Source of the DNA: Candidatus Nomurabacteria bacterium | GTDB lineage: Bacteria > Patescibacteriota > Minisyncoccia > Phycocordibacterales > UBA9973 | Length of the DNA: 64,000 bases | Direction: 5' to 3' | Assembly: GCA_021413905.1 (NCBI GenBank) | Contig: JAIOPO010000005.1 | Span: 146,957-210,956, forward strand | Shown here: one piece after another, positions 35,991 to 53,095 of the stretch | Layout: each line of letters begins with the position of its first letter | Numbering within the stretch: the stretch's first letter is position 1 | Position numbers and translations under genes: made by a program | Notes under the pieces: generated by a model | What the model saw: the letters and a program-made list of their open reading frames with translations, nothing else | What the model was told of the DNA's origin: nothing | The model's database searches: none

Positions 35991-36277
35991 AGGGAGGGTT
36001 TGCATTTTAGAAAACACTTTTGAAATCCGTCAAGACCGTTTTCACCCTCTAAAATTTGTAAATGAGACAGTGCTGAAAACCGCGTTTTTGTGTCTCATCT
36101 GTAACATTCACAAATATGAGACCGCGACCCACAAAGCTAATTTTAACGGGTGCGAGTATCCGAAACAACCCTTGTGGGGGTTGGGAGTCTGGGTACCGTA
36201 CCCACGTACACCGCCATTGACAGGTAGCACGAGATGCACACAAAAAGCACCTACTAGGTGCTTTTTGTGTTTAATAA

Positions 36278-37381
36278 ATGTATGATGATTTCATGGCAAA
36301 ATGTATCTATTGTCTTAAAGATGAAACTAAAACTACTTTCCAATCACGAGAGCATGTTTTGCCTGAGTTTTTAGGACTATATGATCCTCAAACGCCAGTT
36401 TTGAGAGACTGTGTTTGCGATTTATGTAACTCAATTTTTTCTAAATTGGAAACAAAATTTAGAGAGGATACCTTTGAAGGTATCCTAGGTCAAAGGTTAA
36501 ATTTTCAAAACCAAAACAGTATTACCGTTAGGAATAAAAATTTCAAGATCACACCCTTAAGTAAATTCCGGAATCAACTTTTTATGAGAACTTTTTTCTT
36601 ATTAAAAATAGAAAATGAAAAACTTGTTCCCGACTTAAGAGGTCACGTAACTTTAAAAATGAAAAATGGTGGATATAGAGTTTTTCTCTTGGAATCACTA
36701 TCAACACTTAAAAAAGAGTCTTCAAAATTTAATAAAATCAAGAAAGACATCACAAAATTAAGTAAAGAAGATATTTGGATTTTTGTTTCTAAGAAAGAAG
36801 CGTCAATCGAGCAAGTAAAAGATATTCTAAAAAACTATGGTGTAACATATAATGAAAAAGAAAGAGGTTCAGGAGATGATATCTCTGAAACTGTTGAAAT
36901 TGCGGAAAATTATGATGGTACAGTGGATAAGGACATTGTACGAGTAATTGCAAAAATTTGCTTCAATTACCTTTGTTATTGTGCAAGAGAAGACAATCAA
37001 CCTAACATATTATTTCATGAAAACTTTGACTCAATTCGTAGATTTATTTATAAAGGAGAAGGAAGACCACAAAGTTTTTTCAGTATTGATGAGAATCGTA
37101 TTCTTGGAGAAGAAAGTGGTAGTAATAAAAATTACCTAGGACATAGTATCTGTTTTGGTGAGGAGAATGGAAAACTATATTTTCGGATAACATTGTTTGG
37201 TTTTCAGCCCTATAAATTATTTTTAGGTGATATTCCACCAGAACTCAAACATCAATTATTTGGTTGTGCTCATATATTTGATCCATTAGGAAAGAAGATT
37301 CACAACATTGCTCAAAACAGACAACCTATAGCGCTAGATGCTTTAATGCTTTCGTTTGGACTTTTAAAACGTTTTCGTTAG
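36278..37381 (+). CDS. Hypothetical protein of 367 aa with an N-terminal Cys-rich HNH-like segment.
   Basis: CIYCLKDETKTTFQSREHVLPEFLG...CDLCN. Confidence 0.4.
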   Translation: MYDDFMAKCIYCLKDETKTTFQSREHVLPEFLGLYDPQTPVLRDCVCDLCNSIFSKLETKFREDTFEGILGQRLNFQNQNSITVRNKNFKITPLSKFRNQLFMRTFFLLKIENEKLVPDLRGHVTLKMKNGGYRVFLLESLSTLKKESSKFNKIKKDITKLSKEDIWIFVSKKEASIEQVKDILKNYGVTYNEKERGSGDDISETVEIAENYDGTVDKDIVRVIAKICFNYLCYCAREDNQPNILFHENFDSIRRFIYKGEGRPQSFFSIDENRILGEESGSNKNYLGHSICFGEENGKLYFRITLFGFQPYKLFLGDIPPELKHQLFGCAHIFDPLGKKIHNIAQNRQPIALDALMLSFGLLKRFR

Positions 37382-37390
37382 AACTAAAAA

Positions 37391-37822
37391 ATGAATAAGA
37401 AAAACGTATACAAAGATAAGGACGGACGGGATATATTTCAAGTTAATACGATTTTTAATGTGCGTATTGAAAAAACATATTTACATCCCGAATATGATTT
37501 AACTGCTGACACAAATGAAATGACTGACACGGGACTTATGATTGTCTTCAAGCTTGAATCAAAAAACACCACTCTTCCATCATTTGTAGGACGATGGGAT
37601 CATAAACAAGGAGTACTCGATATAGATATATTCAAAGTTAGTAGAAAGATTGTAACCGACTTTCGTGCTGGTAAAAACAACTATGGTGGACATCACCCTT
37701 TACTAATTTCAGAAAGTCCTCGTTTGTTTGCAATAGATATAAATATACCTAAGGGGAAAATAATAGAAGGCGCAATGACTTTTAATATTGGTCACGGACA
37801 TGCTCCTATATTATTTAACTAG
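37391..37822 (+). CDS. Hypothetical protein of 143 aa.
   Basis: ORF only. Confidence 0.35.
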   Translation: MNKKNVYKDKDGRDIFQVNTIFNVRIEKTYLHPEYDLTADTNEMTDTGLMIVFKLESKNTTLPSFVGRWDHKQGVLDIDIFKVSRKIVTDFRAGKNNYGGHHPLLISESPRLFAIDINIPKGKIIEGAMTFNIGHGHAPILFN

Positions 37823-39134
37823 TAAGACTAAGCTTCTTATTCGCCAAACATATCTTACTCTTCAAGCAACCCAACAACTCTCTTTTTTCAATATCAGATC
37901 CTTCTTTTAAAATAAATTTTGCGTATCCTTGTATATCTACATTTGAAACATTAATTTTTTCTTTGGTTCCTAGTAGGAATCTTTGAAATTTAGTAAATCT
38001 TTCGATATCGTTTTTTATCTTTTCTTTGACTTCAAACTCATTGATCGAAATGTCTTCGAGCAGTAATTCAAATTGTTTGATTAACTCTTTCTCTTCAGTA
38101 TAGCCACATTTACAATGTTCGCCTTTGGCTTTAGTACATCCGTAATAAACATAACGATGCACATTTCCATTTTGTTGCTTTTTAAACTTTTCGTCAGCTG
38201 TAATTCCTGATCCGCAAAGCCCACAAGTCATCATTTTTGTAAAAGCGAATTCTTTGTTTTCAACTCTTAACACATTACTTTTTATTTGCTCTTGAACTAA
38301 ATCAAACAATTCTTTTGTAATTAACGGTTCATGTTTTCCTGTATACCAATTACCTGATTTTTTTGGATATTCAAAAACTCCGTAATAGAAAGGATTATCC
38401 AGTATCTTGTAGAGATTACCTAAACTTAAATGTTTTTTACCTACAGCTGTTCTGAAATTTAAATCAAATCTTAGCCAATTGTATATTTTTCTCCCACTAC
38501 ATTTTTCATATGCAACTTTTTCAAACATCTTTTTAATAGTTGACGCTCTTTCAGGATCAATTAACACCTCGCATTTTCTATCTGTCATTTTTTGATTTAA
38601 ATAACCAGTAGGAGCTACTCCAGGTCTTAGCCCCATTTCGGCTCTCGTTCGTAATCCTCTTTTTACATTTACACTTTTATTATCGTTTTCTAGTTTTGCT
38701 TGCGAACACAAAATCATTAAAAGAAATTTTTCATTTGGTGAATTCTTAAAATGTTGCCCATAAGTTCTAATTTCTAAAAGAAATTGCTGATCCATTAAAT
38801 CTACAATACTTCCTAAGTCACCAGCATTTCTACTTAATCTGTCGGGTGCCCAAGTTAGAATTCCATTAAACCTACCATGTCGCACATCTTCTAATATTTC
38901 TTTATATACAGGTCTTTGTCCTGACTCTTTGGCTGAATGTGATTCTCTTCTGATTTCAACAACATCGAGACCTTCTTTTTCAGCTAAACTAAGCATTTCT
39001 TTAACTTGCGAATCAATAGATAAAACTTGACGTTCTTCTGATTCAGTCGATTTTCTAGCATACAGTACGTATTTAATTTTTTGTATTGGTGCAAGAATTT
39101 CTTTTCCAATACGTGCTGACATATATGTTTCCAT
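37815..39134 (-). CDS. Large serine recombinase, integrase type, copy R2.
   Basis: IKYVLYARKSTESEERQVLSIDSQ, the CGLCGSG...C zinc ribbon, and roughly 65-70 percent identity by eye to R1 and R3. Confidence 0.85.
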   Translation of the reverse strand: METYMSARIGKEILAPIQKIKYVLYARKSTESEERQVLSIDSQVKEMLSLAEKEGLDVVEIRRESHSAKESGQRPVYKEILEDVRHGRFNGILTWAPDRLSRNAGDLGSIVDLMDQQFLLEIRTYGQHFKNSPNEKFLLMILCSQAKLENDNKSVNVKRGLRTRAEMGLRPGVAPTGYLNQKMTDRKCEVLIDPERASTIKKMFEKVAYEKCSGRKIYNWLRFDLNFRTAVGKKHLSLGNLYKILDNPFYYGVFEYPKKSGNWYTGKHEPLITKELFDLVQEQIKSNVLRVENKEFAFTKMMTCGLCGSGITADEKFKKQQNGNVHRYVYYGCTKAKGEHCKCGYTEEKELIKQFELLLEDISINEFEVKEKIKNDIERFTKFQRFLLGTKEKINVSNVDIQGYAKFILKEGSDIEKRELLGCLKSKICLANKKLSLTS

Positions 39135-39188
39135 ACATATATTAATGACAGAAAAAGAGCCTTTTGCTAAGGATTAATCATTGGCAAC

Positions 39189-39199
39189 GTGTTGGTAAC
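39189..39199. promoter_or_regulatory. GTGTTGGTAAC core 55 nt upstream of R2, flanked on the right by the arm TTCGCTTAACAAAAATA and leader RNA copy 2.
   Basis: ggcaacGTGTTGGTAACttcgcttaacaaaaatag. Confidence 0.45.
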
Positions 39200-39285
39200 T
39201 TCGCTTAACAAAAATAGTTATATGCGATAGGATTGATGGATTAATACAGACATATGCTGTATTATGTATATATAATTTAATAACC

Positions 39286-39432
39286 GACCTAACCCCTAAA
39301 AGCCTTTGGTTTATAGGATATGGTCAAAATCCTTCCCAGTAAAAAACTCCTCGTCAGAGTTACCTGGGAAGGTCGTATCTGGAAACAGATACGGATCACC
39401 GAAAGGTGGTCGCTGACGGGGAGCTTTTTGTT
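39286..39432 (+). ncRNA. Structured leader RNA copy 2 of the novel motif.
   Basis: GACCUAACCCC[ccua..uagg]GGAUAUGGUC AAAA [ccttcccagt AAAAAACUCCUCGUCAGAGUU acctgggaagg] UCGUAUCUG-GAAA-CAGAUACGG [cacc-GAAA-ggtg] GCUGACGGGGAGCuuuuu. A -10 box TATAAT is at 39271. Confidence 0.6.
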
Positions 39433-39461
39433 TCTCGTCAAATTAAAACCTTCCCAGTTTT

Positions 39462-40427
39462 ATGAAAAATAAAATATGTTTTCTCTCGTTTTTGTTTTTA
39501 GGATTATTAATGCTGTTTTCGACAGCAAGTGCTGATGTTTCATTTAATAAGAATTTATCTTATGGAATGAAGAACAATCCTGATGTTGCAAGATTACAAA
39601 CTTTTTTACAACAGCAAGGATATTATAATGGTCCTGTTTCAGGAAATTACTTTACTCTTACTCAACAAGCGGTAAGAAGTTTTCAGGTAAAAAATAATAT
39701 AAGTCCAGCAAGTGGATATTTTGGGACAATGACTAGAGGTGTAGTTAATTCTATTACTGCAAAAAGTGACTCGGTAAGTTCAATACTTCCTAGTGGATGC
39801 ACTTCAACTTCAATATATAGCATAACAACAGGAGAATCTTGTGTTTCCTTGAATTCGTTATCAGATGCTGCTAAAAAAGCTAAAGAGATTGTTGAAAAAA
39901 CACATCCTGTAGGCGAAACAACAGAACAAGCAAAAGCTAAACTTAACCAGATGTTCAATGATGCTAATAACCAAAGCACCACAGCTCCAATAGATTATGG
40001 TACTTTTTCAAGAGTACAGTTAAGTCAGTATGCTAATAATCCATCAGTATACAAAAGTCAGAAAATAGAAGTTGTTGGAAGTGTTGTATCGTTTCTCCCA
40101 AAGGGTGGTAGTGGTGGAACAACTAATTATATAAACCTTCTAGATCCCATATCTAATGTTCAAGTAATGGCTGAAGTTAAAAGTTCTATTGATTACACTA
40201 TATTGGTTAATAAAGTAAAATCGGGAGATACTTTCAGAGCATACGGAATTGGAACTGCAAGTGGCAACTTTACTAATAAGTATGGATCCACGGTGGTTAT
40301 TTCTGTGTTTCAACTTTTAGCTGCTGATAGTTGTGATTTTGGTTCTTCTGTAACTAATCTTACTTCTGATTCTAGTCCATATGGATGGACATGTAGTGGT
40401 ACAATGCAACATGTGATACCACAATAA
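39462..40427 (+). CDS. Secreted protein with an N-terminal peptidoglycan-binding (PG_binding_1-like) domain.
   Basis: Signal peptide, then VARLQTFLQQQGYYNGPVSGNYFTLTQQAVRSFQ. Confidence 0.65.
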   Translation: MKNKICFLSFLFLGLLMLFSTASADVSFNKNLSYGMKNNPDVARLQTFLQQQGYYNGPVSGNYFTLTQQAVRSFQVKNNISPASGYFGTMTRGVVNSITAKSDSVSSILPSGCTSTSIYSITTGESCVSLNSLSDAAKKAKEIVEKTHPVGETTEQAKAKLNQMFNDANNQSTTAPIDYGTFSRVQLSQYANNPSVYKSQKIEVVGSVVSFLPKGGSGGTTNYINLLDPISNVQVMAEVKSSIDYTILVNKVKSGDTFRAYGIGTASGNFTNKYGSTVVISVFQLLAADSCDFGSSVTNLTSDSSPYGWTCSGTMQHVIPQ

Positions 40428-40448
40428 AGCTATTAAGTAATAAATATG

Positions 40449-42047
40449 CTATCTTTTTCTCATCATCCTCATAAAATTCCGACGTTCATATTCACTTTCT
40501 AACATTAGAGCTACATCTACTTTCTTTTCTTCCTCTTTTCTCACTTCAGGATCCTGTATATCAGAAGCTTTAGGTATTGGTATGGAAGAAGGTATAACCA
40601 AACGATTCGGGTCTCTTTCTGCATCCATAACTGTATGCATTAGCATTGATAAAGCATCCAAGAGATCGTCATATTTTTCATAACCAAATCCATATATTTG
40701 GTTTTCTAATATAGGTATACCTTCTTTTGGAAATAATACTTTTCCTTCCAAAAAATAATTTGTAGTAGCCCTTAATCGTTCAGCCTTATCTTTTGAACCT
40801 GGATTATAAGGAATAACATCTATCCCTTTATCTTTGGCTTGTTGATGTATATAACCTTGCGCGCCAACTTTTTCAACAACCACCTTAGGTGTTAAATTAA
40901 CTGATTTGAAATAATTAACTTCATTTTCAATAAACTTAATTATCTGAGGAAATTCTATTCTTTTATTGAATATCTTAGGTCTGATATAGATTTTTATTTT
41001 ATCCTGATATCCAAAAACATCAGCATAAACTCCAGCAGTAAAATCATTTTTATTACTAGTACCCGTCGCAGGATCAATAGACATAATGGTAAAACGATAA
41101 TCGTTAGCATAATCTAGCGCCGGAATTTTGTCATATCTTTTAATTAATTCATTCCTAATAATCTGCGACTCCTCATTAATTGGATTCAACATAAACTCTC
41201 TTTGCCATGCATTTTCATCATTCATGACCTTAGTTCTTTTTTCCTGATCAATCAATTCTTGAGAATGAAACTTCTCTTTCCATAAAGGAATACCTTTATC
41301 ACCAAAGAAAGGAAATCTTACTGCTTTACCAAATATTTTATTATCCGCAATATCATTGCAAACCCTTATCAACACAGAATCTTGATGAAGTGGCGTACCA
41401 ACTAAAACCATTCTGGCATTTTGATCTCCTGCGGGCAAAACATCTCGCGTTAACCACCGATACATATTATCTCTTTTTTCTTGACTGTCGACTGTTTTAT
41501 CAGTTTCAATATCGTCTAAGATAAATAGTTGTGGTCGGTACTGATTGTATTTAGTACCGCGAATACTTTGTTCTGTTGATCCAATGCCAATTTTTGCTTC
41601 ATACTGAGGCAATATTAATGCTTCTGCGCCCCATTGTCCTTGTATTTCTTTAAAGGGTCCCATATCAGCTTTTAATCTAGAATTATTTTCAAGTTGAAAT
41701 TTAATATCCTGTAATTTTTCTCTAGCCTGTGAATTCGTTCCACCTAAAATCATTACATATTTTTTATTTTGACAACCTAAAATAGACCATATGACATAGC
41801 TCATAGTAATAATTGTTGTTTTTCCACTTCCACGGAATGCCATTATGACTAAATTAGTAAAATTGCTTTCGGTTAGATGAATTATTGATCTATGGAAATC
41901 AGCTGTCGGGTGTGATATGTATTCACTGAAGTAATAATGAAAAAACCAAAAATGACTTTTCTTTACTAATTCTAATCTAAATGCTCTATCATTGATCATT
42001 CTATCAATGATCTTTTTGTATTCCTTTTTAGTTATTTTCTTTTTCAT
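40449..42047 (-). CDS. Phage terminase large subunit-like protein (TerL), module B.
   Basis: Walker A AFRGSGKTT, Walker B LFILDDIE, and nuclease Asp residues at MSIDPATG and YDDLLDAL. Confidence 0.65.
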   Translation of the reverse strand: MKKKITKKEYKKIIDRMINDRAFRLELVKKSHFWFFHYYFSEYISHPTADFHRSIIHLTESNFTNLVIMAFRGSGKTTIITMSYVIWSILGCQNKKYVMILGGTNSQAREKLQDIKFQLENNSRLKADMGPFKEIQGQWGAEALILPQYEAKIGIGSTEQSIRGTKYNQYRPQLFILDDIETDKTVDSQEKRDNMYRWLTRDVLPAGDQNARMVLVGTPLHQDSVLIRVCNDIADNKIFGKAVRFPFFGDKGIPLWKEKFHSQELIDQEKRTKVMNDENAWQREFMLNPINEESQIIRNELIKRYDKIPALDYANDYRFTIMSIDPATGTSNKNDFTAGVYADVFGYQDKIKIYIRPKIFNKRIEFPQIIKFIENEVNYFKSVNLTPKVVVEKVGAQGYIHQQAKDKGIDVIPYNPGSKDKAERLRATTNYFLEGKVLFPKEGIPILENQIYGFGYEKYDDLLDALSMLMHTVMDAERDPNRLVIPSSIPIPKASDIQDPEVRKEEEKKVDVALMLESEYERRNFMRMMRKR

Positions 42048-42423
42048 TTTGAGGTAAAGCTAATAGTAATGCTTGTCGAACAAGTTTTTCTTGTTCGACA
42101 TTAAGTACAGGACTTTCATTTATTATTTTTCCGCTAACTTCGACACGTTCACGAAATTTAGGATTTCTATGTTTTAACCAAAATGAAATCGCTGACCAAT
42201 TCTTTTCACGAATAAGAACAAGTAATTGATTCTCACTCATGTCATTAACCAAGTCTTCACCTTCTTGCAAAGCTATTTCCATTTCCTTTCTAAAAACCTC
42301 ATCTTCTTTCCGCCAGCGATATACTGTATTTCTTGAAAGTCCGATCTGCTCACAAGAAACCTGAATTATTGGAATTTTTTTAAGTTTTTCCAAAAACTCG
42401 TCTTTCTTCCTAGTTTTTTTCAT
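42028..42423 (-). CDS. Small HTH protein, putative terminase small subunit, module B.
   Basis: HTH GLSRNTVYRWRKE. Confidence 0.45.
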   Translation of the reverse strand: MKKTRKKDEFLEKLKKIPIIQVSCEQIGLSRNTVYRWRKEDEVFRKEMEIALQEGEDLVNDMSENQLLVLIREKNWSAISFWLKHRNPKFRERVEVSGKIINESPVLNVEQEKLVRQALLLALPQNEKENN

Positions 42424-43690
42424 AGAATTTTTTTATTATCTTAGCTTTTCGACCAGTCAATTTTTCATATCTCCGTATTGCAAGGTCACAAAAAATTGGC
42501 TCAATTTCAAGTGAGTATACTTTGCGCCCCAATTGTTCGGCGCAGATCATCGTACTTGCAGATCCGGAGAAAGCATCAAAGATAATATCACCTGGCTTTG
42601 TGCAGCGCATAATAAACTTATGGTGCAATTCAGGATTCTTGCTCGTCGGGTGCTCCATTTGATTCGATGGAAGTCTTTTGGTCGCCCAAAGATTCGATAT
42701 GTCTTCAAGGAGTTGGTTGCCCGTGCCTAAATCTTTGTTTTGAATCTCATTTAGATTTTTCTGTAAGTCAGACAAATACGGTGAGCCTTTTGTGCCGTAA
42801 ACACAAAACTCTGTGCATTTATTAAATGCAACAGTAGGGGTCGGAGAAGAATTATTTTTTACCCAAACATTTAATCTTCTATTTTTAATCCCGAGTTCCA
42901 TATACAGAGTTTGGAAAACCCAAACCCATGCTTCGTCTGACCAAAATGCTACATGGATATCTTCGATTGAAACAGCGAGAGAAGACTGTAGTACTTTTCG
43001 GATAAACTCAACATATTCTTTAGGTGGTTGATTGTCGTCAAAAGAACCGCCGTAGTTGCTTTTATTGCCAACTCCTTTGTCATATGAAAGCCCGATATTA
43101 AAAGGTGGATCATTGTATATAGCTGTCGCCCTGTGTTCGCCGAATAATTTTTGCACAGCATGTATATCCGTAGAACTGGCGCAGAGCAATTTGTGATCTC
43201 CCATAACTATGAGATCACCCTTTTGCACGACAGGCTTCTTTATCTTTTTTAATTCTTTCGATACATCAAACTTGTCGTCTTTTGTATCCCTGTCTTCGTC
43301 CCAAGACTTTGCCAATTCTATTTGGTCAAATCCAATATCAGTCAGCAAATCTATTTCAAACGATTTTAACTTCTCAACTTGCCACTCCCCGTCATTTATA
43401 TTGGATTCTAAACCTATTTTTATTCTTTCTTCTTTTGTAAGTTTCCGATTTGGAACAAGTATATTAACTTCCTTAATACCAAGTTTCGTAAGAGCAGTTT
43501 TTCTTTGATTACCTGAAAGAATTGTATTGTCTGTGTCTATTACAATTGAAGCGTGAAATCCTCTTTGGTTAATTCTTTCCGTTAACTTTTCCAAGTCTTC
43601 CTTGCTAATTTTACGCGGATTTTCTTTCCACGTTAATAAATCTTTTACTTTTCTAACTTCTGCGCTCCAAAATAATTTGGATTTATTCAT
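42410..43690 (-). CDS. ParB-like domain fused to a DNA methyltransferase, module B.
   Basis: NDPPFN motif IV and FDAFSGSAST motif I; the N-terminus is ParB-like. Confidence 0.8.
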   Translation of the reverse strand: MNKSKLFWSAEVRKVKDLLTWKENPRKISKEDLEKLTERINQRGFHASIVIDTDNTILSGNQRKTALTKLGIKEVNILVPNRKLTKEERIKIGLESNINDGEWQVEKLKSFEIDLLTDIGFDQIELAKSWDEDRDTKDDKFDVSKELKKIKKPVVQKGDLIVMGDHKLLCASSTDIHAVQKLFGEHRATAIYNDPPFNIGLSYDKGVGNKSNYGGSFDDNQPPKEYVEFIRKVLQSSLAVSIEDIHVAFWSDEAWVWVFQTLYMELGIKNRRLNVWVKNNSSPTPTVAFNKCTEFCVYGTKGSPYLSDLQKNLNEIQNKDLGTGNQLLEDISNLWATKRLPSNQMEHPTSKNPELHHKFIMRCTKPGDIIFDAFSGSASTMICAEQLGRKVYSLEIEPIFCDLAIRRYEKLTGRKAKIIKKFYEKN

Positions 43691-44118
43691 AATGCTTAAA
43701 TAATTAAACTTTTAATACAAGAAAAACCAAGATTACTCTCAGCTCTAACTTTTAAAAGATAAACTTCAAAAAGCTAGAGCTCAACGGCTAAATAATTGTT
43801 GATCTCCACCTTTTTAGAGTTCATCCGATGTGAGCTTGTAGGGATTACTCCCTAGTCTCCAACACACACCAGCACTTACCTAAATAAATGGGGTATTAAA
43901 TTTTTCTTGAGGTTAAAAGAATTTCGACTAAAAAATTATTTTAACCCATATACATTATACTAGCTTTTTTATTTTTTTATCTTTTTTTGAATTAACAAAA
44001 AATCCTTTGTTTACAAGGGTTATATATTAGCAAAGTCCTTAAAAAATATTATGCAATATAATTTTACGTCTTGTAATGGGTAAATTGAGTTATTAACTTG
44101 CGCTAAACATATAATGCT

Positions 44119-44754
44119 GTGTATACTAGTTATACTATGATAAATAACCTGAGTGATAAAGACAAGAGAGCCTTTGCCCTTATCCGCAACAAGGTTATAC
44201 ATTATGGTAAAAGTCCTACCCTTCGTCAGATCAATGAAGTTACGGGTGGAAAGTCCCCACGCTCTGCAAGCCTTGTAATTGATAGACTTGTATTGTCTGG
44301 TCTTATAAAAAAGAATGGAAGAGATATGATGCTTGCAAATACTTACCAAGAAAGCTCTGTAAGTACAATAGATGTACCATTGGTTGGATCTGTTTCGTGT
44401 GGAGTACCAGTTTTTGCAGAAGAAAATATACAAACCTATATTCCTGTTTCAGTAAAACTTGCGAAAAAAGGTTCAGAGTATTTTTTTCTCCGAGCATTTG
44501 GTGATTCAATGAATGAGGCAGGAATAAATAGCGGTGATTTACTTCTTATAAGACAACAAGACACGGCAGAGAGTGGAGATAAGGTTGTTGCGCTCATTAA
44601 TGATGAAGCAACGGTAAAGATTTTTGAAAAGACTCGTGATGCTATTATTCTACGACCAAAATCAAATAATAAAATTCACAAGCCTATTATATTAACAACT
44701 AACTGCATGATCCAAGGAGTAGTCGTTGCGGTGCTTCCAGAGGATCTGTGCTAA
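44119..44754 (+). CDS. LexA/CI-like repressor (wHTH plus S24 peptidase). The preferred start is the ATG at 44137.
   Basis: DNA-binding N-terminus TLRQINEVTGGKSPRSASLVIDRLVLSGLI. The S24 Ser-Lys dyad appears at AFGDSMNEAGI and ATVKIF. A palindrome GTATACTAGTTATAC overlaps the start. Confidence 0.75.
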   Translation: MYTSYTMINNLSDKDKRAFALIRNKVIHYGKSPTLRQINEVTGGKSPRSASLVIDRLVLSGLIKKNGRDMMLANTYQESSVSTIDVPLVGSVSCGVPVFAEENIQTYIPVSVKLAKKGSEYFFLRAFGDSMNEAGINSGDLLLIRQQDTAESGDKVVALINDEATVKIFEKTRDAIILRPKSNNKIHKPIILTTNCMIQGVVVAVLPEDLC

Positions 44755-44969
44755 AAAATATGGCAAAATCAGTAGTAGTAACAAATGAATCAGAGTCTGG
44801 AAGAAATCAGAATTTTCATGACAACAAATCAGGAAAAGATATGACACGAGCTGGGTTCGTAAAAGAAATTGAACAAGGTAATTACGATGATTATCATGTA
44901 CGTATGGTCAACGGTGTAAAAACACCCGTGTCGAACCCTGACGGTAAAGAAGGTAACAATTTGGATTAA
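44748..44969 (+). CDS. Small hypothetical protein of about 70 aa.
   Basis: Short ORF whose start overlaps the repressor's stop; YHVRMVNGVKTPVSNPDGKEGNNLD. Confidence 0.3.
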   Translation: MLKNMAKSVVVTNESESGRNQNFHDNKSGKDMTRAGFVKEIEQGNYDDYHVRMVNGVKTPVSNPDGKEGNNLD

Positions 44970-44974
44970 ATTTT

Positions 44975-45793
44975 ATGGCAGATATTGATTCATACATAGA
45001 AGACCTTAAGAAAAAATCGGAAGAAAGATTTGAGCAATTTAAAATTGTAGACATCAGTAGCATTAAAGAAATATCGAACGATGCCTATCTAGAGAAACCA
45101 ACATGGCTTGGTGGTGATAAAAAGTTTGTATGTTTATTTATTGATCTTGATAAGTCATCCAAGATATCATTCAAAAAACATCCAAAGACGATGGCTAAAA
45201 TATATGATTATTTTACACAGAACATTGTTGATATATTAAATCACCCGACATTCGGAGCCGATTATATTGATATCAAAGGAGACGGAGCATTCGGTATTTT
45301 TGAAGGCGATAAGGCTTCTTACAAAGCACTATACTGTGCTATTACTTTTAAAACCCTATTCGAGCAATCGATTCGAGATAAGTTTAGCGACGAAGAAGAT
45401 CAATTGAGTTGTAAATTTGGAATACATAAAGACAAACTCCTTGTGAGAAAAATAGGAAAGCGAGGACATGGTAATTACAACGAAGTTTGGGCAGGTAGAT
45501 TAGTTAATAACGCTGCGAAGCTAGCAAACCAGGCAAAAGACATCCCTCAAGATATTGCTTATCCTCTCTCACTCCCTATTCTTATATCTGAACAAGTTCA
45601 TAGCGACTTTGAGAAAAATAAAGAGTTCGGATTTTATCACTGCTGTACTGGTAATGGTCAACCTCTGCCAAATCAAATAGAAATGTTCAAAGAGGTCAAT
45701 GATTTTTCTGATGAGACATTGGGTGATAAGTTTTATTACACAAGAGTGATTTGGTGTAAAAATTGCGCTGATAATTACATTAACCTTATCTAG
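44975..45793 (+). CDS. Class III nucleotidyl cyclase-like protein (adenylate/guanylate/pyrimidine cyclase fold), cyclase 1.
   Basis: The metal-binding Asp motifs FIDLDKSSKI and IKGDGAFGIF match the F.DI.GFT and KTIGDAYM patterns of class III cyclases. Confidence 0.55.
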   Translation: MADIDSYIEDLKKKSEERFEQFKIVDISSIKEISNDAYLEKPTWLGGDKKFVCLFIDLDKSSKISFKKHPKTMAKIYDYFTQNIVDILNHPTFGADYIDIKGDGAFGIFEGDKASYKALYCAITFKTLFEQSIRDKFSDEEDQLSCKFGIHKDKLLVRKIGKRGHGNYNEVWAGRLVNNAAKLANQAKDIPQDIAYPLSLPILISEQVHSDFEKNKEFGFYHCCTGNGQPLPNQIEMFKEVNDFSDETLGDKFYYTRVIWCKNCADNYINLI

Positions 45794-45795
45794 AT

Positions 45796-46269
45796 ATGGA
45801 AAACCTAAAATACACCTTCGGACAAGTAAATGATTGGATTAAAACGGCGGATCAAAAAGCCATGATCTTAGGGTCATTTAATATCGCTGGTTTTATATAT
45901 CAACTTGTGAATCTCGACAAATTGGTGTGTGGAAGTATTTATACACTAATATTGTCTATAGTATCAATCGCCGCCACGTTGGTTACTCTATATTTCTGGC
46001 TTAGGATTATCTATCCAAAACTTGATAATAAACACAAGAAGTCCAAAATTTACTTTCAACATATCGCAAACGCCTACGAAAATGATATCGCTTCAGGGAT
46101 AGATGATTTACAAAAGATAGATGATGAGGAATATAAAAAAGATTTGGCTAGCCAGATTGTAATAAATTCAATCATTGCAAAGAAGAAATATGCTTCTATT
46201 CAAAAATTTATTTGGGCTTTTGGAGTTCAGTTAGTCACTCTACTTTTACTGCTAATTAGCCTGATCTAA
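45796..46269 (+). CDS. Small 3-TM membrane protein, SLATT/PycTM-like putative pore-forming effector.
   Basis: 157 aa with two adjacent N-terminal TM helices and a C-terminal TM helix; no nucleotide-binding domain is evident. Confidence 0.45.
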   Translation: MENLKYTFGQVNDWIKTADQKAMILGSFNIAGFIYQLVNLDKLVCGSIYTLILSIVSIAATLVTLYFWLRIIYPKLDNKHKKSKIYFQHIANAYENDIASGIDDLQKIDDEEYKKDLASQIVINSIIAKKKYASIQKFIWAFGVQLVTLLLLLISLI

Positions 46270-46270
46270 G

Positions 46271-47062
46271 ATGTCTGAATTTAAAGACAGTCTTATAAGA
46301 GATACTGACTATTTTTTTGATGGCGATTATGAAATCGTACAAGGTAGAATGATTCCTAGTGTAGATGAAGTAGCCTTTGGTAGGTTTGGGAAGGAAGTTG
46401 AATTAGCCATGCTATTTATTGACGTCAAAGAATCCACAAAAATAGTAGACGCTTTTCGCCTGAAAACTGCGGCTCGTATGTATCAGTCATTTTTAAGAGG
46501 AGTAACTTTGATTGCCCTCAAAAATGGTGGTGAAGTAAGAAGCTTTAATGGTGATGGTGTATTAGTTACCTTTCATGGTGATTCAAAGTGCGACAATGCG
46601 GTTCGGTCTGCATTGCAAATGATGGATTTTGCCAATACAGTCTTGAAACCAAAATTAAGAAGTTATTTCGTTAATAACAAACAAGCACAAAACCTTATTT
46701 TTGATTGTGGTATTGGGATAGATATCGGTAATGTATTTGTAGTGAGAGGTGGTGCTAAGGGTGATGATAATAATGATCTAGTATGGGTCGGCAATCCAAC
46801 AAATTATGCAGTTAAACTTTCAGCGCAATCAAAAGTACAAACACTAGGCAGTCTTGCTACAGCTCCTGTTACAACAGTTTACAATATACATATCACAAAT
46901 CGAGTTTATGTAAACCTCAAACCTGAACTTAAAACAGTAAAAGGTTCTGGCGTTTTTGCTTTCAATATTTGGAACAGACAGCCATCAGCATTGGGAGGTC
47001 TCTTGCCTGGTTCTTTGGCTACAACGACAATTTATCGAACAAATAAAACTTTACCTTTTTAA
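46271..47062 (+). CDS. Class III nucleotidyl cyclase-like protein, cyclase 2.
   Basis: LFIDVKESTKI and FNGDGVLVTFHG motifs. Confidence 0.55.
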   Translation: MSEFKDSLIRDTDYFFDGDYEIVQGRMIPSVDEVAFGRFGKEVELAMLFIDVKESTKIVDAFRLKTAARMYQSFLRGVTLIALKNGGEVRSFNGDGVLVTFHGDSKCDNAVRSALQMMDFANTVLKPKLRSYFVNNKQAQNLIFDCGIGIDIGNVFVVRGGAKGDDNNDLVWVGNPTNYAVKLSAQSKVQTLGSLATAPVTTVYNIHITNRVYVNLKPELKTVKGSGVFAFNIWNRQPSALGGLLPGSLATTTIYRTNKTLPF

Positions 47063-47110
47063 AATTTTTATTTCCTGTGAAAATTAGTACACTTTTGATA
47101 CAATAAACAA

Positions 47111-47614
47111 ATGATCAATTTAATTATCCTTGTATTTTTGATAGCAGTTGTTTTTATCTTTCTTAAAAAATATTTTCCAGACATATTTAATGAAAAAGAT
47201 AAGCCAAGCAAATCTCCGTATAATTACAAGAAAAAAGATTTTTTAATGAGTCGAGCAGAACATGAGTTTTTTGATATTCTTGTTGATATAGTAGGTAATC
47301 AATATTATGTATTTCCACAAATACACCTATCAACTATTTTAGACAATAAGGTTGTAGGACAAAATTGGAGAGGTGCCTTTCGTCACATAGATGAAAAATC
47401 AGTTGATTTTGTTATTTGTGATAAAGCATATATCAAACCAATTCTTGCCATTGAATTAGATGACAAAACACACGAAAGAGAAGATAGAAAAGGACGAGAT
47501 GGAGAAGTAGAGCGTATTCTTAAGGAATCAGGACTATCTCTTTTAAGATTTGGGAATAATGGGAGTTTTAATAAGGAAGAAATAAAAAGATCTATTTCAG
47601 AAAAAATAAAGTAA
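47111..47614 (+). CDS. Membrane-anchored DUF2726-like PD-(D/E)xK nuclease-fold protein.
   Basis: N-terminal TM; ...YVFPQIHL...VDFVICDK...LAIELDDKTHE gives a D...E.D arrangement. Confidence 0.55.
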   Translation: MINLIILVFLIAVVFIFLKKYFPDIFNEKDKPSKSPYNYKKKDFLMSRAEHEFFDILVDIVGNQYYVFPQIHLSTILDNKVVGQNWRGAFRHIDEKSVDFVICDKAYIKPILAIELDDKTHEREDRKGRDGEVERILKESGLSLLRFGNNGSFNKEEIKRSISEKIK

Positions 47615-47629
47615 TAGAAATCTATAGCA

Positions 47630-48610
47630 ATGCCGGACATAAAGAAAAACTTAATGTTGCTAACTGGTGCAGGGTTCACACGAAATTTTGGTGGGTTTTT
47701 AGCACGTGAGATGTGGTCAAAAATATTTAATAATCCAATTGTACAAGCAAGCGCAGAAGCACGAGGATTACTTTTGAATGATTTTGACTTTGAGTCTGTC
47801 TACTCGGCTAAAATGAGCCATGGAGAAGAAACAATAAAGATTATAAGAGAGGCTGTCGAAATGGCATATAAGGATCTTGATGATACAGTAAAAAATTGGG
47901 TTTTTAATCATGGCAATCCAACGGCACTTAATACATACGGGTTAGGTGAGCTTCTTAGTTTTATATCAAGTAGAGGTTCAGATAAAGGATGGTTCTTTAC
48001 CCTCAATCAAGATTTATTTATGGAACGAAAACATAATTACAGATCACCAGGAGCAATGTTTAGTCAGCCTTTTATTGAAGGAGATAATGGTAAAATTGGA
48101 ATTATAACTTTACCCAATGAAAACGGTGTAGAAAAAGTTAAAAATACTTTAAATAATGCAAGTTATATAAAACTACATGGATCATATGGCTGGATTTCAT
48201 CACACGGTGGCAATCAGATGGTAATTGGTAAAAACAAAGTAAATGATATTGATCAAGAACCATTATTAAAATGGTATTTTGAGATTTTTCAAAATCTAAT
48301 TAAAGAAGGTAATAAAAAATTATTAATCATTGGCTATGGGTTTGCCGATAATCATATAAACGACATTCTGCTTAACGGAATACAGGAGCATGGTCTTAGT
48401 TTGTATATAATAAGCACAACTGATCCAGAAACATTTAAAAATAGACTTGAGGGAAAACCGTCACATTTAGGCAGTTGGGAGGTTTCTAAATATTCAAAAA
48501 TATGGGATGGTGTTAAAGGATATTTTCCTTATTCATTAAGAGATATATACCCTCCAGACCAAAGTATTACTACCATATCACTAGAAATTAAAAAGGCTTT
48601 GGAAAGTTAA
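47630..48610 (+). CDS. SIR2_2-family (SIR2-like) protein; putative NADase effector.
   Basis: LLTGAGFTRNFGG, FFTLNQDLFMER, KLHGSYGW and LLIIGYGFADNHI motifs. Confidence 0.55.
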   Translation: MPDIKKNLMLLTGAGFTRNFGGFLAREMWSKIFNNPIVQASAEARGLLLNDFDFESVYSAKMSHGEETIKIIREAVEMAYKDLDDTVKNWVFNHGNPTALNTYGLGELLSFISSRGSDKGWFFTLNQDLFMERKHNYRSPGAMFSQPFIEGDNGKIGIITLPNENGVEKVKNTLNNASYIKLHGSYGWISSHGGNQMVIGKNKVNDIDQEPLLKWYFEIFQNLIKEGNKKLLIIGYGFADNHINDILLNGIQEHGLSLYIISTTDPETFKNRLEGKPSHLGSWEVSKYSKIWDGVKGYFPYSLRDIYPPDQSITTISLEIKKALES

Positions 48611-48832: not shown

Positions 48833-48866
48833 GAAAAAAGAACGACAATTGCCGTTCTTTTTTCTT
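48833..48866. terminator. Bidirectional intrinsic terminator.
   Basis: aaaaaAGAACGacaattgCCGTTCTtttttc. Confidence 0.55.
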
Positions 48867-49254
48867 AACTGAAATCTATTTCAAAATTATACATTCCCAT
48901 ACCACAAGTTCCCCTGAGTGGCTCACCAGCTTTAGGTATGCCGATATCAATTATTTCTTCTGCTGATTGAGAGAGAATTTTTTGATAATTAATTGATTTA
49001 ATAACCAAAGAAGCTGAACAGTCGTATGTACCGCTTGTTTTTACAATTAATTTTGTAGGAATACCTGCTTTAGCATTACTTAGTTGTGGAGAATACCCAC
49101 CCTTAGCATCAATTGTTATGTATTGTATCCCGTCTTTTATCTCGGTATTTTGAATTATTTTACTAGAGTCTTTTGTTGTTGATCCACCTGTTAAAACAAT
49201 ACCTATGGCAACAATAAGACCTAGTGTAATGATTATTGAAACTGTTTTGTTCAT
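48865..49254 (-). CDS. Membrane-anchored cupredoxin-like small protein.
   Basis: N-terminal TM and a C-terminal ...TCGMGMYNFEIDF cupredoxin-like end. Confidence 0.4.
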   Translation of the reverse strand: MNKTVSIIITLGLIVAIGIVLTGGSTTKDSSKIIQNTEIKDGIQYITIDAKGGYSPQLSNAKAGIPTKLIVKTSGTYDCSASLVIKSINYQKILSQSAEEIIDIGIPKAGEPLRGTCGMGMYNFEIDFS

Positions 49255-49272
49255 AAAGTAATTATATCAAAA

Positions 49273-50280
49273 TTAAATATTAAATAATGGATTTATAACA
49301 CCAAGACCTGCCAGCCCTGCGAGTAAAGCAAATATACCAAGACCTACAACAACAACTCCCGCAGATTTAAAGAATAAGGGTGCATGTTTACCATGCGCAA
49401 AAGATGCCGATCCAAAAGATAGAATTGAAAGCACTGGTAATGTTCCAAGAGCAAATGTAAACATAATCAATAATCCAGACATAAAAGATCCACTTGAAAT
49501 AGCTGCTACTTGCATAGCCTGTGTAAATCCACATGGTAAGAAGAATGTGGCAAATCCTATAATAAGAGGAGTTAAAGTTTTATGTTCAACCTTTCTAAAG
49601 AAATTAAAAACACCTGAAGGTAAGGTAACATTACTCTTTTTAAAAACTCCTACTAAATTTAAGCCAAGTAGTAGCATAACGATTGAAGCCACAATACCTA
49701 GTATTGCTGAGAATGTGAAACTTATACCAATAGCATTACCTATAAGTCCTAAAACTCCACCCAAAAGAGCAAAGCTGACTAATCTACCAGTATGAAAAAG
49801 TATGAAAGTTTTAGTATCGCTTATATTATCTTCAGAGATTTTCGCAGAAAGAGATAATACTAGACCACCGACAATCGCAAGACAACTTGAAACAGATGCA
49901 ATAAGACCAACGATAAAACTTGTCATTGGAGTAGTCTTACCTCCAATACCTAAATTGAGAATTCCTGATTTTTGTAATATGAAAAATAAGACAAGAAAAA
50001 CTAAACCAATAGGTATAGCTTTCCAAATAACATCATCTTCTTTATTTTTATTAAGTTTTTTTTCAACCGACAAAGAGTATCCATTGGGTTTAATTTTATC
50101 TGCAAGAATGGTTGCGATTTCGTCTATGTTCTGTTCAGTATTCATTTCAACATCTACGGTCTCATTTTTTAGATTTACATTTGATTTAACAACAAAAGAC
50201 TGCTCATTCAAAATATCTTCTATCAAGATTTTACATGATGCGCAGTGTGTTCCAGTTACATAAAATTTGTAATTTTTCAT
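49273..50280 (-). CDS. Heavy-metal-associated (HMA) domain fused to a DsbD/CcdA-like polytopic membrane region.
   Basis: N-terminal GTHCASCKILIE HMA motif; the remainder has 6-8 TM helices. Confidence 0.55.
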   Translation of the reverse strand: MKNYKFYVTGTHCASCKILIEDILNEQSFVVKSNVNLKNETVDVEMNTEQNIDEIATILADKIKPNGYSLSVEKKLNKNKEDDVIWKAIPIGLVFLVLFFILQKSGILNLGIGGKTTPMTSFIVGLIASVSSCLAIVGGLVLSLSAKISEDNISDTKTFILFHTGRLVSFALLGGVLGLIGNAIGISFTFSAILGIVASIVMLLLGLNLVGVFKKSNVTLPSGVFNFFRKVEHKTLTPLIIGFATFFLPCGFTQAMQVAAISSGSFMSGLLIMFTFALGTLPVLSILSFGSASFAHGKHAPLFFKSAGVVVVGLGIFALLAGLAGLGVINPLFNI

Positions 50281-50303
50281 TGTTTTATAAGTTAATATTT
50301 ATT

Positions 50304-50774
50304 TTAATCATAATTGAGCACTATCTTGTCTCCATCTTTCATATAATAATTCCCAAAATCCAATTTATCTACACCATTTACTGTCATCCTTATATTTGAA
50401 CCGAAAGAGTTTATATCCTTATTCCAAATTTTGAAAAACTCACTGAGTTTAGTATCTCTACCTCGAACTACTGATGAAAACTCCAAATGGATAACTCCTA
50501 ACTGTGAATCTTCGTCGTGAGTGTGAATTGGATTATGAACCGCACCAAGTCCAATATTTGCGGGGATTTCTACTTTTTCTCCTTTTATATATATAGAAAG
50601 CTCAGGATGCCAGTGAATTCCGTTTCGAGAAATTATTTCTGATTCATAAGGATTTTCCACACTACTAGATGAGGGTTTGTCTGAATATACGAAATAAACA
50701 AAAACCCCAATGACTAAAATGGCTAGTATCCATATCCAGATATTTTTATTATTTTTCTTGTGCTTATTTTTCAT
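50304..50774 (-). CDS. Membrane-anchored His-rich hypothetical protein.
   Basis: TM anchor, then HWHPE...HNPIHTHDED, which are possible metal ligands. Confidence 0.4.
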   Translation of the reverse strand: MKNKHKKNNKNIWIWILAILVIGVFVYFVYSDKPSSSSVENPYESEIISRNGIHWHPELSIYIKGEKVEIPANIGLGAVHNPIHTHDEDSQLGVIHLEFSSVVRGRDTKLSEFFKIWNKDINSFGSNIRMTVNGVDKLDFGNYYMKDGDKIVLNYD

Positions 50775-50776
50775 AA

Positions 50777-53095
50777 TTATAATCTCTTACTTTTAATTCT
50801 CAGTGAGTTCGACACAACTGACACTGATGACATCGCCATCGCAAATCCTGCAAATACTGGATTAAGCAACCAGCCAAAAATTGGGTAAAAAACTCCAGCC
50901 GCAAGAGGGATTCCTACAATATTGTAAATGAATGCCCAAAAAAGGTTTTGTTTAATTCCTCGCATTGTTATTTTTGATAACCTTATTGCTTTTACAATTT
51001 TTGAAATATCTCCACCCAGGAGTGTAATTCCTGCTGACTCAATGGCAACATCAGTACCTGTACCCATGGCGATACCGACATCGGCTTGAGCTAGTGCAGG
51101 AGCGTCATTTACTCCATCACCCGCCATAGCAACAACATGTCCTTGGGATTGAAGTTCTTGTATTTTTAATAACTTATCTTGAGGTAAAACATGAGCAACA
51201 ACTTCATCGACTCCAACAAGAGATGCGATGTGTTTCGCCGCTTTTTCATCATCGCCTGTAAGCATCACTACTTTAATTCCAAGTTTATGAAGAGCATTAA
51301 TAGCTTCTTTTGATTCAGGTTTTATTTCATCTGCAACCATTACAAAACCAAGAACTTTTTCTTTTGTAGATATAATGACAGGAGTTTTTCCTTGGGATGT
51401 AAACTCTTCTAGCAATGTTTGATCAAAAGAAAGATTTAAATCTTTAATAAGCTTTATATTACCAACAAAATATTCAACCTGCTTAACAGACCCTTTTAGA
51501 CCTTTTCCTTGAATTCCTTCAAAGTTTGAAACTTCTTGTATGGGGATATTCTTCTCTTTTGCATAGTTCACAATTGCGTGTGCGATTGGATGTTCAGATT
51601 TTTTCTCTAGTGTTGCAAGTATTCCTATCAAATCTTCATTACTCATATCTGAGCTATTTTGGATATCAACAAGTGTCGGTTTCCCAATTGTTATCGTTCC
51701 TGTTTTATCCATCATGACAGTATCAACTTTGTGTAATTTCTCTAGCGTAGCCGCATCTTTAATCAGTATTCCTTCCTTTGCTCCTTTACCAACCCCTACA
51801 ATGATTGCAGTCGGGGTAGCAAGTCCAAGTGCACATGGGCATGCAATAACTAATATCCCGACAAAGGATACAAGTCCAAATGAAAGAGCTTGTGAAAATC
51901 CAAGTGAGCCAGTTCCAAACGCCAACCATACCCCCAAAGTCACAAAAGCTAAGATAAGAACTATCGGTACAAAAACGCTTGAAATCTTATCAGCTAATGC
52001 CTGAATAGGGGCTTTACTCCCTTGGGCTTCTTCAACCATGTGTATAATTTGAGCCAGCAATGTTTCTGATCCAACTTTTGTGGCTTTAAAAACAAACGAT
52101 CCACTTGTATTAATTGTTCCTGCGACCACACTATCTCCAATCTTTTTCTGTACTGGCATTGGCTCTCCTGTTACCATTGATTCATCAACAAAAGATGATC
52201 CCTCAGTAATGACTCCGTCTACTGGAATCTTTGTTCCTGGTTTAACAATAATTAAGTCTCCATGCTTAACCTCATTTATAGAAATCTCTACTTCCTTACC
52301 TTCACGCACAACCAAGGCTGTTTTTGCTTGAAGATTTAAAAGTTTTTCTATCGCATCTCCTGTTTTAATTTTTGAACGAGCTTCTAAATATTTACCAAGA
52401 GCGATAAAAGTAATCACTACAATGGTCACATCGTAGTAAGTATGATCTACATTTATAAAAGGTCTGAGTACTTCTTCAAATGCACTGACAGCAAAACTAT
52501 ATAAAAAAGCGGCAACAGTACCGATACCGATAAGTGTATCCATATTAGCTTTGCCATATCTTAAGAAACGATAAAACCCCAGAAGATATGGTTTCCCTAC
52601 AACAAATAGAGTATAGGTCGCAAAAATAGGTAATAGATGGTGAAAAAATTCTTTGAGTGTATAGCTCATCATAGGGACAATACTGTACTGAGCAAGAATA
52701 TCCCAAGTCATGACGAAAACACTAAAGATGGCTAGTGGAATAGCTGACATGACTTTAGATTTCATATCCTTTATCTCTTCAATCTTTTCCTTTTTTGACT
52801 GATTTAATCCTAAATGTTCAGCATGTTCGTTTTCACTCATACCCATAGAACTCGCAGGCATGCTTTCCGTACTATGATCCATAGGTGCTATCAAAGAATA
52901 CCCAAGCGGTTCCAATTTCTTATTAAAAGATTCAGCGTTAGTTTTTGAACTATCAAAAACAATCTTTGCGTTCTCGGTACCATTGTTTACTGAAATATCT
53001 TCCACTCCATCGATTTTTTTTACTGTTCTTTCAATAATACTTGCACACGAAGCACAATGCATACCTTTAATTTTGTATATCTTTGGAGTATTCAT
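50777..53095 (-). CDS. copA: Copper-translocating P1B-type ATPase.
   Basis: HMA motif [12 protein letters not shown]; transmembrane CPC motif; DKTGTIT phosphorylation site; [10 protein letters not shown]. Confidence 0.9.

Follow-up and report, generated by a model that had tools for sequence, protein, structure and literature searches.

A cyclase-PycTM-cyclase variant of Pycsar in the cargo region of a predicted integrative element of Candidatus Nomurabacteria

Among the described systems, the closest to the locus in this work are Pycsar systems with a PycTM effector, such as AnPycC/AnPycTM of Anabaena (PMC11224242). That system consists of one PycC cyclase with Asp/Asp/Asn/Lys catalytic residues and one PycTM effector (PF18967) without a cyclic-nucleotide-binding domain (CNBD), both encoded in a compact operon. 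Published PycTM effectors are small proteins with three transmembrane helices (3TM) that belong to the pJV1-spdB3 family and have no CNBD, which is present in PycTIR effectors only. The characterised cyclases AnPycC and BcPycC both make cyclic uridine monophosphate (cUMP), and the PycC and PucC enzymes with solved structures are homodimers. It has also been stated in the Pucsar preprint that some Pycsar-1 loci have multiple cyclases, for which relay-like or amplified signalling was raised as a possibility (Chakravarti et al., bioRxiv 10.64898/2026.08.12.744502). In this work, we have analysed a stretch of 64,000 nucleotides (nt), hereafter the window, from a Candidatus Nomurabacteria bacterium. 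A run of seven open reading frames (ORFs) on the plus strand, at positions 44119-48610, contains two PycC-type cyclase genes that flank a single PycTM gene. The host belongs to Patescibacteria/Parcubacteria in the Candidate Phyla Radiation (CPR), and a metagenome-assembled genome of a Candidatus Nomurabacteria bacterium has identical proteins (locus tags K8Q94_03335 and K8Q94_03345). All seven ORFs that had been claimed in an earlier reading of the letters alone (the sequence-only reading) are present.

The locus is similar to AnPycC/AnPycTM (PMC11224242) in its PycC residues, its CNBD-less PF18967 effector and its compact operon, and cyclase 1 also shares the F/K/F pocket and the Zn-ribbon of AnPycC. 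It differs from that system in having two cyclases, which are 26% identical to each other, around the effector instead of one. It also differs in its CPR host, in the LexA-family repressor gene that comes first and in the terminase-bearing integrative element that carries it. The locus resembles the Pycsar-1 loci of the preprint (bioRxiv 10.64898/2026.08.12.744502) in combining multiple stand-alone cyclases with a 3TM effector of the pJV1-spdB3 family. However, the preprint gives one sentence to such loci and reports neither architecture, frequency and residues nor experiments, whereas the gene order, recurrence and shuffling are documented here. No characterisation of a two-cyclase Pycsar was found in the literature beyond that sentence, and no literature that links Pycsar to Patescibacteria was found.

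The core of the operon is very probably a Pycsar system. It exhibits a class III cyclase fold with the Asp/Asp/Asn/Lys residues, matches to PycC-specific profiles and an adjoining PycTM gene, and these PycC and PycTM matches bear out the Pycsar kinship that the sequence-only reading had proposed. It departs from the usual pairing of a single cyclase with a single effector, as two cyclases accompany one effector. The core was classified as a Pycsar variant because two cyclases flank one effector and this arrangement recurs in 16 other loci.

Both cyclase genes are predicted from profiles and structure models to encode genuine PycC cyclases. Cyclase 1 (cycD) matches the PADLOC PycC profile PDLC02369 (E 9.8e-66) and cyclase 2 (cycB) matches PDLC02367 (E 6.4e-56). 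The generic Pfam profile Guanylate_cyc gave just 21.4 bits for cyclase 1 and no match for cyclase 2. The solved structure nearest to cyclase 1 by sequence is the Anabaena uridylate cyclase AnPycC (8jsz, 5e-24), and the one nearest to cyclase 2 is the Burkholderia cUMP synthase BcPycC (7r65, 6e-19). The same two structures are the best fold matches of the AlphaFold2 models. The model of cyclase 1 (predicted local distance difference test score, pLDDT, 82.8) matches 8jsz with E 1.2e-16 and a template modelling (TM) score of 0.71, and the model of cyclase 2 (pLDDT 83.4) matches 7r65 with E 9.4e-21 and TM scores of 0.78/0.89. Ordinary class III cyclases rank after the PycC entries in the searches with both models. 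The sequence-only reading had named GGDEF and Thg1 as folds that would speak against it, and neither was found among the fold matches of either model. The motifs quoted in that reading (FIDLD/GDGAF and FIDVK/GDGVL) were found in the two translations, and profile, structure-sequence and fold evidence agree with its claim that a PycTM-like protein is flanked by two cyclases of the class III type whose metal-binding Asp pairs are intact. No recognisable CNBD or other regulatory domain was identified in either cyclase by profile searches or in the fold models.

The catalytic residues D57, D103, N178 and K182 of cyclase 1 are invariant or nearly so in the cycD family. Its F55, K101 and F106 are the counterparts of F60, K104 and F109 in the uracil pocket of AnPycC, which have been shown by experiment to be required for the use of uridine triphosphate. 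Cyclase 1 also has a C-terminal Zn-ribbon (C223, C224, C261 and C264) that is a CC variant of the CxC form, whereas the clade D Zn-ribbon of AnPycC consists of C221/C223/C260/H263. C223, C261, K101 and F106 are invariant across the cycD family. By the clade definitions of PMC11224242 and the Pucsar preprint, cyclase 1 has both features of a clade D PycC, namely the Zn-ribbon and the F/K/F uracil pocket. In the cycB family, F49, D51, N93, D95, G96, N178 and K182 are invariant across 59 members. Cyclase 2 was not placed in clade B because F49/N93/G96 replace the Y50/D94/R97 residues of BcPycC, and its pocket positions are nearer to the AnPycC-type pattern (F...x-G-D-G) than to the BcPycC pattern.

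The 157-amino-acid (aa) protein between the cyclases, a small membrane protein of the multi-pass type, is the sole effector of the operon. It matches the Pfam PycTM family PF18967 with 41.4 bits (cutoff 27.2) and the PADLOC PycTM profile with 1.2e-25, in line with the earlier suggestion of a PycTM-like protein. Strong hydrophobic segments are at residues ~40-73 and 135-157 and a weaker segment is at ~22-38. The sequence-only reading was right that this effector has no CNBD. It was mistaken in calling the system atypical for that reason, since published PycTM effectors have none and the missing domain is normal here.

The recurrence of the arrangement was determined from a scan of species-representative genomes with the cyclase 1 alignment (22 loci) and a scan of metagenomes with the cyclase 2 alignment (80 loci), where the gene content of each locus (numbered with the prefix L) was obtained from ORF-level searches with the proteins of the window. 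The order cycD-PycTM-cycB was identified in 13 other loci (L001, L003, L014, L016, L023, L025, L027, L042, L051, L053, L061, L062 and L076), so that the trio does co-occur elsewhere, which the sequence-only reading had made a condition of its claim. Three further loci (L052, L063 and L079) exhibit the order cycB'-PycTM-cycB, and five (L009, L012, L017, L068 and L071) exhibit two cyclases in other orders. The near-universal layout of the cycB family is PycTM followed by cycB, with ~37 loci that have no upstream cyclase despite enough visible sequence. The usual layout of the cycD family is cycD followed by PycTM (8 loci). The core of the window looks like these two layouts overlapped on one PycTM gene. 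When the metagenome loci anchored on cycB were dereplicated into clusters at 95% identity, 11 of the 34 informative clusters (~1/3) had an additional cyclase gene 5' of PycTM. The cyclase-PycTM-cyclase sandwich is a recurrent Pycsar architecture, especially in CPR genomes, that has been remarked on once in passing and is unstudied.

The tree of PycTM exhibits sandwich loci that are scattered across at least five lineages with two-gene relatives in between, so that the arrangement has arisen or disappeared more than once. The identities of other loci to the window for cycD, PycTM and cycB are 49/91/89% in L014, 75/64/84% in L027 and 69/63/54% in L053. The window is thus a mosaic where the repressor and cycD are similar to those of the L027/L003 group while DUF3892, PycTM and cycB are similar to those of L014. 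These comparisons indicate that the three core genes recombine independently. A tight spacing of the genes, with 1-3 nt between them or an overlap, is maintained. The co-variation in an all-against-all comparison of the 8 closest trios was lowest between cycD and cycB (rho 0.14, p 0.26) and higher between PycTM and the two cyclases (rho 0.55 and 0.35), in a test that is small (8-12 loci) and has no phylogenetic correction. The statement that PycTM co-varies with cycB and not with cycD was considered and dropped, as PycTM correlates with both cyclases in this Mantel-type test.

The sequence comparisons favour two independent homodimeric sensor cyclases that feed one effector over an obligate heterodimer. 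Independent homodimers are favoured because of the intact residues, the solo use of each family elsewhere, the gene shuffling, the weak co-variation of the cyclases and the solved homodimers, taken together. We propose that each cyclase would form its own homodimer and act as a separate phage sensor. Upon infection, either cyclase would make a 3',5'-cyclic mononucleotide, which is probably cUMP for cyclase 1. The cyclic nucleotide would activate PycTM, and the resulting membrane damage would bring cell death or arrest before phage release. The net effect would be an OR-gate through which a wider range of phages could be detected. The operon is probably transcribed from the promoter of the LexA-family repressor gene, which would couple its expression to the repressor, and RecA-dependent cleavage of the repressor may raise this expression. 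This whole mechanism of two sensor cyclases, one signal class, one membrane effector, a LexA-type repressor promoter and a mobile element is given a somewhat better than even chance of being correct. A functional analogy is offered by Thoeris systems that have multiple ThsB TIR sensors and by CBASS operons with two nucleotide synthases, for which broader phage recognition has been proposed (PMC13069673). They likewise have several signal-making sensors for one effector, although their enzyme families and signals are unrelated to those of Pycsar.

Several points weigh against this proposal, in addition to the size of the co-variation test. The F49/N93/G96 residues of cyclase 2 stand where BcPycC has its pyrimidine-selecting Y50/D94/R97, and therefore the product of cyclase 2 and the convergence of both products on one receptor are unproven. 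The PycTM of the window lies in a clade that contains two-gene PycTM-cycB systems, and a response to the product of cyclase 1 is therefore not implied by ancestry. An S24 repressor gene is directly upstream in 10 of the 26 cyclase-first loci and in none of the 32 PycTM-first loci, and it is therefore not obligatory. No capsid, portal or tail genes were identified at 37.8-48.6 kb, so that a satellite and a decayed prophage are both candidates for the element. The OR-gate itself is an inference from gene content.

Accidental juxtaposition is the alternative that survives best, and it is unlikely. Two Pycsar systems would have collided in a cargo hotspot and one effector would have been lost, which would leave one cyclase as a functionless or decaying orphan. 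The cargo bay is prone to recombination and its ancestry is mosaic, and the position of the window PycTM among PycTM-cycB systems would make cycD the extra gene. However, the order recurs in 13 loci, across at least five PycTM lineages and in about one third of the dereplicated clusters. The cycD genes in trio loci retain every catalytic and Zn-binding residue, and the short gaps or overlaps between the genes are preserved.

An obligate heterodimer, after the heterodimer that the sequence-only reading had suggested for the two paralogs, is about equally unlikely on the present comparisons. Both cyclases would form one composite enzyme like the C1/C2 domains of mammalian adenylyl cyclase, soluble guanylate cyclase or the tandem-domain clade A PycC. 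Class III cyclases form their active sites at the interface of a dimer, and in clade A PycC a single chain carries two cyclase domains in succession. The genes cycD and cycB are tightly linked about PycTM in the window (gaps of 2 nt and 1 nt, respectively) in a pairing that recurs. However, complementary residue loss and strict co-occurrence were not observed. The metal-binding Asp pair and the Asn/Lys residues are invariant in both families, in single- and multi-cyclase loci alike. Both families are far commoner as the only cyclase of an operon, and the partners are freely swapped, with cycD 45-75% identical while cycB is 79-89% identical. The co-variation between the cyclases is the weakest of the three pairs, and the solved PycC and PucC enzymes are homodimeric. 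The complete catalytic sets in every context, the solo operons of each family and the independent shuffling argue for separate homodimers.

A relay, an amplifier or a dual signal is a still less probable arrangement. The product of one cyclase would activate the other cyclase, or PycTM would integrate two nucleotides, either as an AND-gate or for the evasion of phage nucleases such as Apyc1. The pockets of the two families do differ (F/K/G/F in cycD and F/N/G/L in cycB), and phages are known to have Apyc1 nucleases, which break down cyclic nucleotides (PMC9117128). However, neither cyclase has a recognisable CNBD or other regulatory domain, and each family signals to a PycTM alone in other loci.

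The way in which Pycsar senses phages is still obscure, and two cyclases on one effector offer a clean genetic test. If the OR-gate is true, catalytic mutants of either cyclase alone would be expected to lose defence against different phages, and a comparison of these phages could reveal the triggers. The loci in this work also indicate that, in ultra-small CPR bacteria, the cyclic-nucleotide suicide systems Pycsar and CBASS move as interchangeable cassettes behind a LexA-type repressor in a compact terminase-carrying element. Such cassette exchange bears on how streamlined genomes hold a dense defence repertoire. A more far-reaching proposal is tentative. It would describe a two-input device where independently evolving cyclases, possibly with different triggers or even different products, act on one 3TM effector in a LexA-gated, swappable Pycsar/CBASS bay of an undescribed, CPR/Patescibacteria-specific family of terminase-bearing elements that integrate in tandem. 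The features of the operon and of the two elements in the window are shown in Table 1.

Table 1. Features of the two-cyclase operon, of the element that carries it and of a second element in the window.
Feature	Coordinates	Strand	Evidence or remark
Promoter/operator block (putative role)	44098..44136	+	Layout kept in L003, L023, L027
LexA-family repressor, winged helix-turn-helix + S24 peptidase	44137..44754 (longest ORF from GTG 44119)	+	TIGR00498, Peptidase_S24
DUF3892 protein, 73 aa	44748..44969	+	PF13031, phrog_11939
PycC cyclase 1 (cycD), 272 aa	44975..45793	+	PADLOC PycC, 8jsz
PycTM effector, 157 aa	45796..46269	+	PF18967, PADLOC PycTM
PycC cyclase 2 (cycB), 263 aa	46271..47062	+	PADLOC PycC, 7r65
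DUF2726 protein, PD-(D/E)xK-like, N-terminal hydrophobic helix	47111..47614	+	PF10881, DUF559
Stand-alone SIR2_2 protein, 326 aa, putative NADase	47630..48610	+	PF13289
Element backbone	37815..43690	-	Pfam and PHROG matches
Large serine integrase	37815-39134	-	phrog_95, 3.5e-62
LOOT RNA	39286-39411	+	RF03000
PG_binding_1 protein gene	39462-40427	+	Between integrase and TerL
TerL	40449-42047	-	phrog_38, 2.1e-77
TerS	42028-42423	-	
ParB_N-N6/N4 methyltransferase	42410-43690	-	
Second element, serine integrase	20650-22080	-	
Second element, TerL	30740-32194	-	
Second element, TerS-like	32166-32591	-	
Second element, methyltransferase	32584-33348	-	
Second element, ParB-methyltransferase	33323-34648	-	

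The first gene of the operon encodes a LexA-family protein, as the sequence-only reading had claimed for a LexA-like repressor. It matches the lexA equivalog TIGR00498 with 132.2 bits (cutoff 110.95) and Peptidase_S24 with 1.4e-27, and it aligns with Escherichia coli LexA from end to end (3e-20). The Ser of the catalytic dyad is in GDSM and the Lys is in TVK, and the loop at the LexA cleavage site has Cys-Gly at the position of Ala84-Gly85, so that the equivalog score, the dyad and the cleavage-site loop are all in place. UmuD is cleaved at Cys-Gly. The PHROG annotation of the protein is transcriptional repressor / CI-like, and the protein is probably the immunity repressor of the element. In lambda cI-rexAB, and in CBASS regulated by CapH/CapP or CapW, an abortive-infection module shares a transcript with a damage-responsive repressor or is under its control. 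The locus in this work differs from these in its putative regulator, a LexA equivalog that contains an S24 self-cleavage domain.

The start codon of the repressor is most likely ATG 44137 rather than GTG 44119, because ATG 44137 is conserved in L003, L023 and L027 and the LexA match opens at residues 3-5 of the shorter protein. A -35-like TTGCGC (44098-44103) is followed after an 18-nt spacer by a -10-like TATACT (44122-44127). A tandem repeat, GTATAC (44121-44126) and TTATAC (44130-44135), ends 1 nt before the ATG. The layout TTGnnn-16/18-TATACT-N3-TTATAC-(T/C)ATG is common to the window, L003, L023 and L027, where the remaining intergenic sequence diverges. The sequence-only reading had placed an operator-like palindrome here, and its string GTATACTAGTTATAC is present at 44121-44135. 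The arms of that palindrome are just 5 bp (GTATA/TATAC), and the string is really a tandem direct repeat, [G/T]TATAC-N3-TTATAC. The palindrome thus gave way to a conserved direct repeat, which overlaps both a probable -10 box and a very short leader. An operator role of this repeat is plausible, and putative SOS-type control of the operon is likewise plausible.

Copies of TATAC-N4-TATAC with at most one mismatch were counted in the window as well. There are 12 copies, where 3.4 are expected and none of 100 shuffles reaches 12. They include 7831-7844, 22072-22085 and 26350-26363, and several are just 5' of gene starts. The count suggests that -10 boxes of the TATAC type are widespread in this genome. 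The copies resemble generic promoter boxes, and therefore no regulon can be deduced from them.

The operon is predicted to come first among the cargo genes in the immunity region of an integrative, phage-like element with a length of about 11 kb. The same backbone of integrase, terminase and methyltransferase genes was identified beside Pycsar in L003, L027, L014, L006, L011, L052, L056 and L071. The TerL protein shares no more than 28% identity with known phage terminases. A scan of IMG/VR found no close relatives and hence no direct sign of carriage by phages. Related elements exhibit bays that are likewise led by an S24 repressor and hold other cassettes in place of Pycsar. The bay of L104 (2210-5993) contains a CD-NTase and Cap15, and its ParB-methylase matches that of the window at 4.6e-188. 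The bay of L111 (1419-5829) contains SAVED and SMODS proteins, and the bay of L110 (35-3777) contains a CD-NTase-like protein with a 234-aa partner. CBASS thus occupies the position of Pycsar in sister elements, and the operon can be regarded as putative swappable cargo of a compact integrative element.

The genes around the core differ in their association with Pycsar. The DUF3892 protein is just below the cutoff of PF13031 (22.2 bits, cutoff 22.3) and matches phrog_11939 with 2.6e-28. It was found at the same position in L014 only, among the loci compared, and is an optional member of the operon. The DUF2726 protein matches PF10881 (6.3e-29) and DUF559 (8.5e-5) and has no match in PADLOC. 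DUF2726 genes are near Pycsar in L057 and L071 only, on the opposite strand, and the DUF2726-SIR2_2 pair recurs once, behind the CBASS-like cassette of L110. The SIR2_2 protein matches PF13289 (1.5e-8), the generic PADLOC SIR2 models and the SIR2 family protein 8yhx (6.6e-6, HGS motif included). It scores 31.5 bits against NF042942 SIR2_antiphage, where the cutoff is 500. It is a protein of 326 aa with no second domain, no partner genes of SIR2 defence systems were found near its gene, and it does not correspond to Thoeris ThsA, DSR, SIR2-HerA or SIR2-pAgo, whose SIR2 domains go with a partner or sensor of their own (SLOG, HerA, pAgo or a long C-terminal domain). SIR2_2 is a large stand-alone family that is absent from all other Pycsar loci compared. 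The SIR2_2 proteins at the bay ends, behind the CBASS cassettes of L104, L111 and L110, are 71-93% identical, and other members are in the unrelated defence contexts of L103, L105 and L107.

The sequence-only reading had counted the DUF2726 and SIR2_2 proteins as parts of the signalling cluster. A larger system of five to seven genes with one or both of them as extra effectors of the cyclases is highly improbable. In its favour, all the genes share one strand and short gaps (48 nt after cycB and 15 nt between DUF2726 and SIR2_2), SIR2_2 ends the operon behind a cyclic-nucleotide cassette in the window, L104, L110 and L111, and effectors with SIR2 domains deplete NAD in other systems. Against it, both genes are missing from each of the 16 further two-cyclase sandwich loci, and SIR2_2, which lacks a sensor domain, also occurs next to KAP NTPase/RloB, DUF4238 or unrelated genes. 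A promoter-like site with an extended -10 is in the gap between cycB and DUF2726 (47077-47104), and the shared ancestry of the elements, to which the ParB-methyltransferase match attests, explains the co-residence. On this comparison, DUF2726 and SIR2_2 are best read as independent cargo, and perhaps as a separate defence candidate. The genes 3' of cycB vary by locus, with a UPF0489 gene in L014 and unrelated genes in L003. The UPF0489-domain gene of L014 (9104-9862) starts 3 nt after cycB, where the window has DUF2726 and SIR2_2 instead.

A block at 16000-36000, directly after tRNA-Ser(tga) (15950-16036), has a GC content of ~0.46 compared with ~0.32 in the host and contains the backbone once more. 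The two backbone copies therefore represent two elements of the same family that differ in GC content and are arranged in tandem. In L001, L042, L056, L071, L075, L110 and the window (35310-39134), a serine integrase gene on the minus strand often comes directly after plus-strand defence cargo, which fits a tandem integration of elements at one site.

Four LOOT RNAs (RF03000) were identified in the window, at 12834-12975(-), 27789-27921(+), 39286-39411(+) and 58547-58668(+), with 75-82 bits against a gathering threshold of 46.4 bits. Each is just 5' of a gene whose product is in most cases a membrane or secreted protein, and two copies are inside the two elements, between integrase and terminase. 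The proteins encoded 3' of the four RNAs exhibit no homology to each other and belong to no Pfam family. The leader of the ParB-methylase/terminase operon at 43735-43900 (-) has a predicted folding energy of -54 kcal/mol (z -4.55), which none of 200 shuffles equals. It matches no Rfam family, and no conservation of it could be aligned across five related loci.

A copper/heavy-metal cluster (cupredoxin-like protein, membrane proteins and P-type ATPase) is at 48865-53095 (-), right after SIR2_2. None of its genes recurs beside Pycsar in other loci, so the cluster marks the host flank of the element. In the GC-rich element, the genes directly before the next integrase, in the cargo position, encode an Mrr_cat restriction endonuclease that is joined to a zinc ribbon of the Top1 type (35310-35990) and a protein of the HNH_5 family (36278-37381). 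An ORF of 1360 aa at 16200-20282 (+), between tRNA-Ser and the first integrase, has faint P-loop/NACHT/HEAT matches and may encode a STAND-like defence NTPase.

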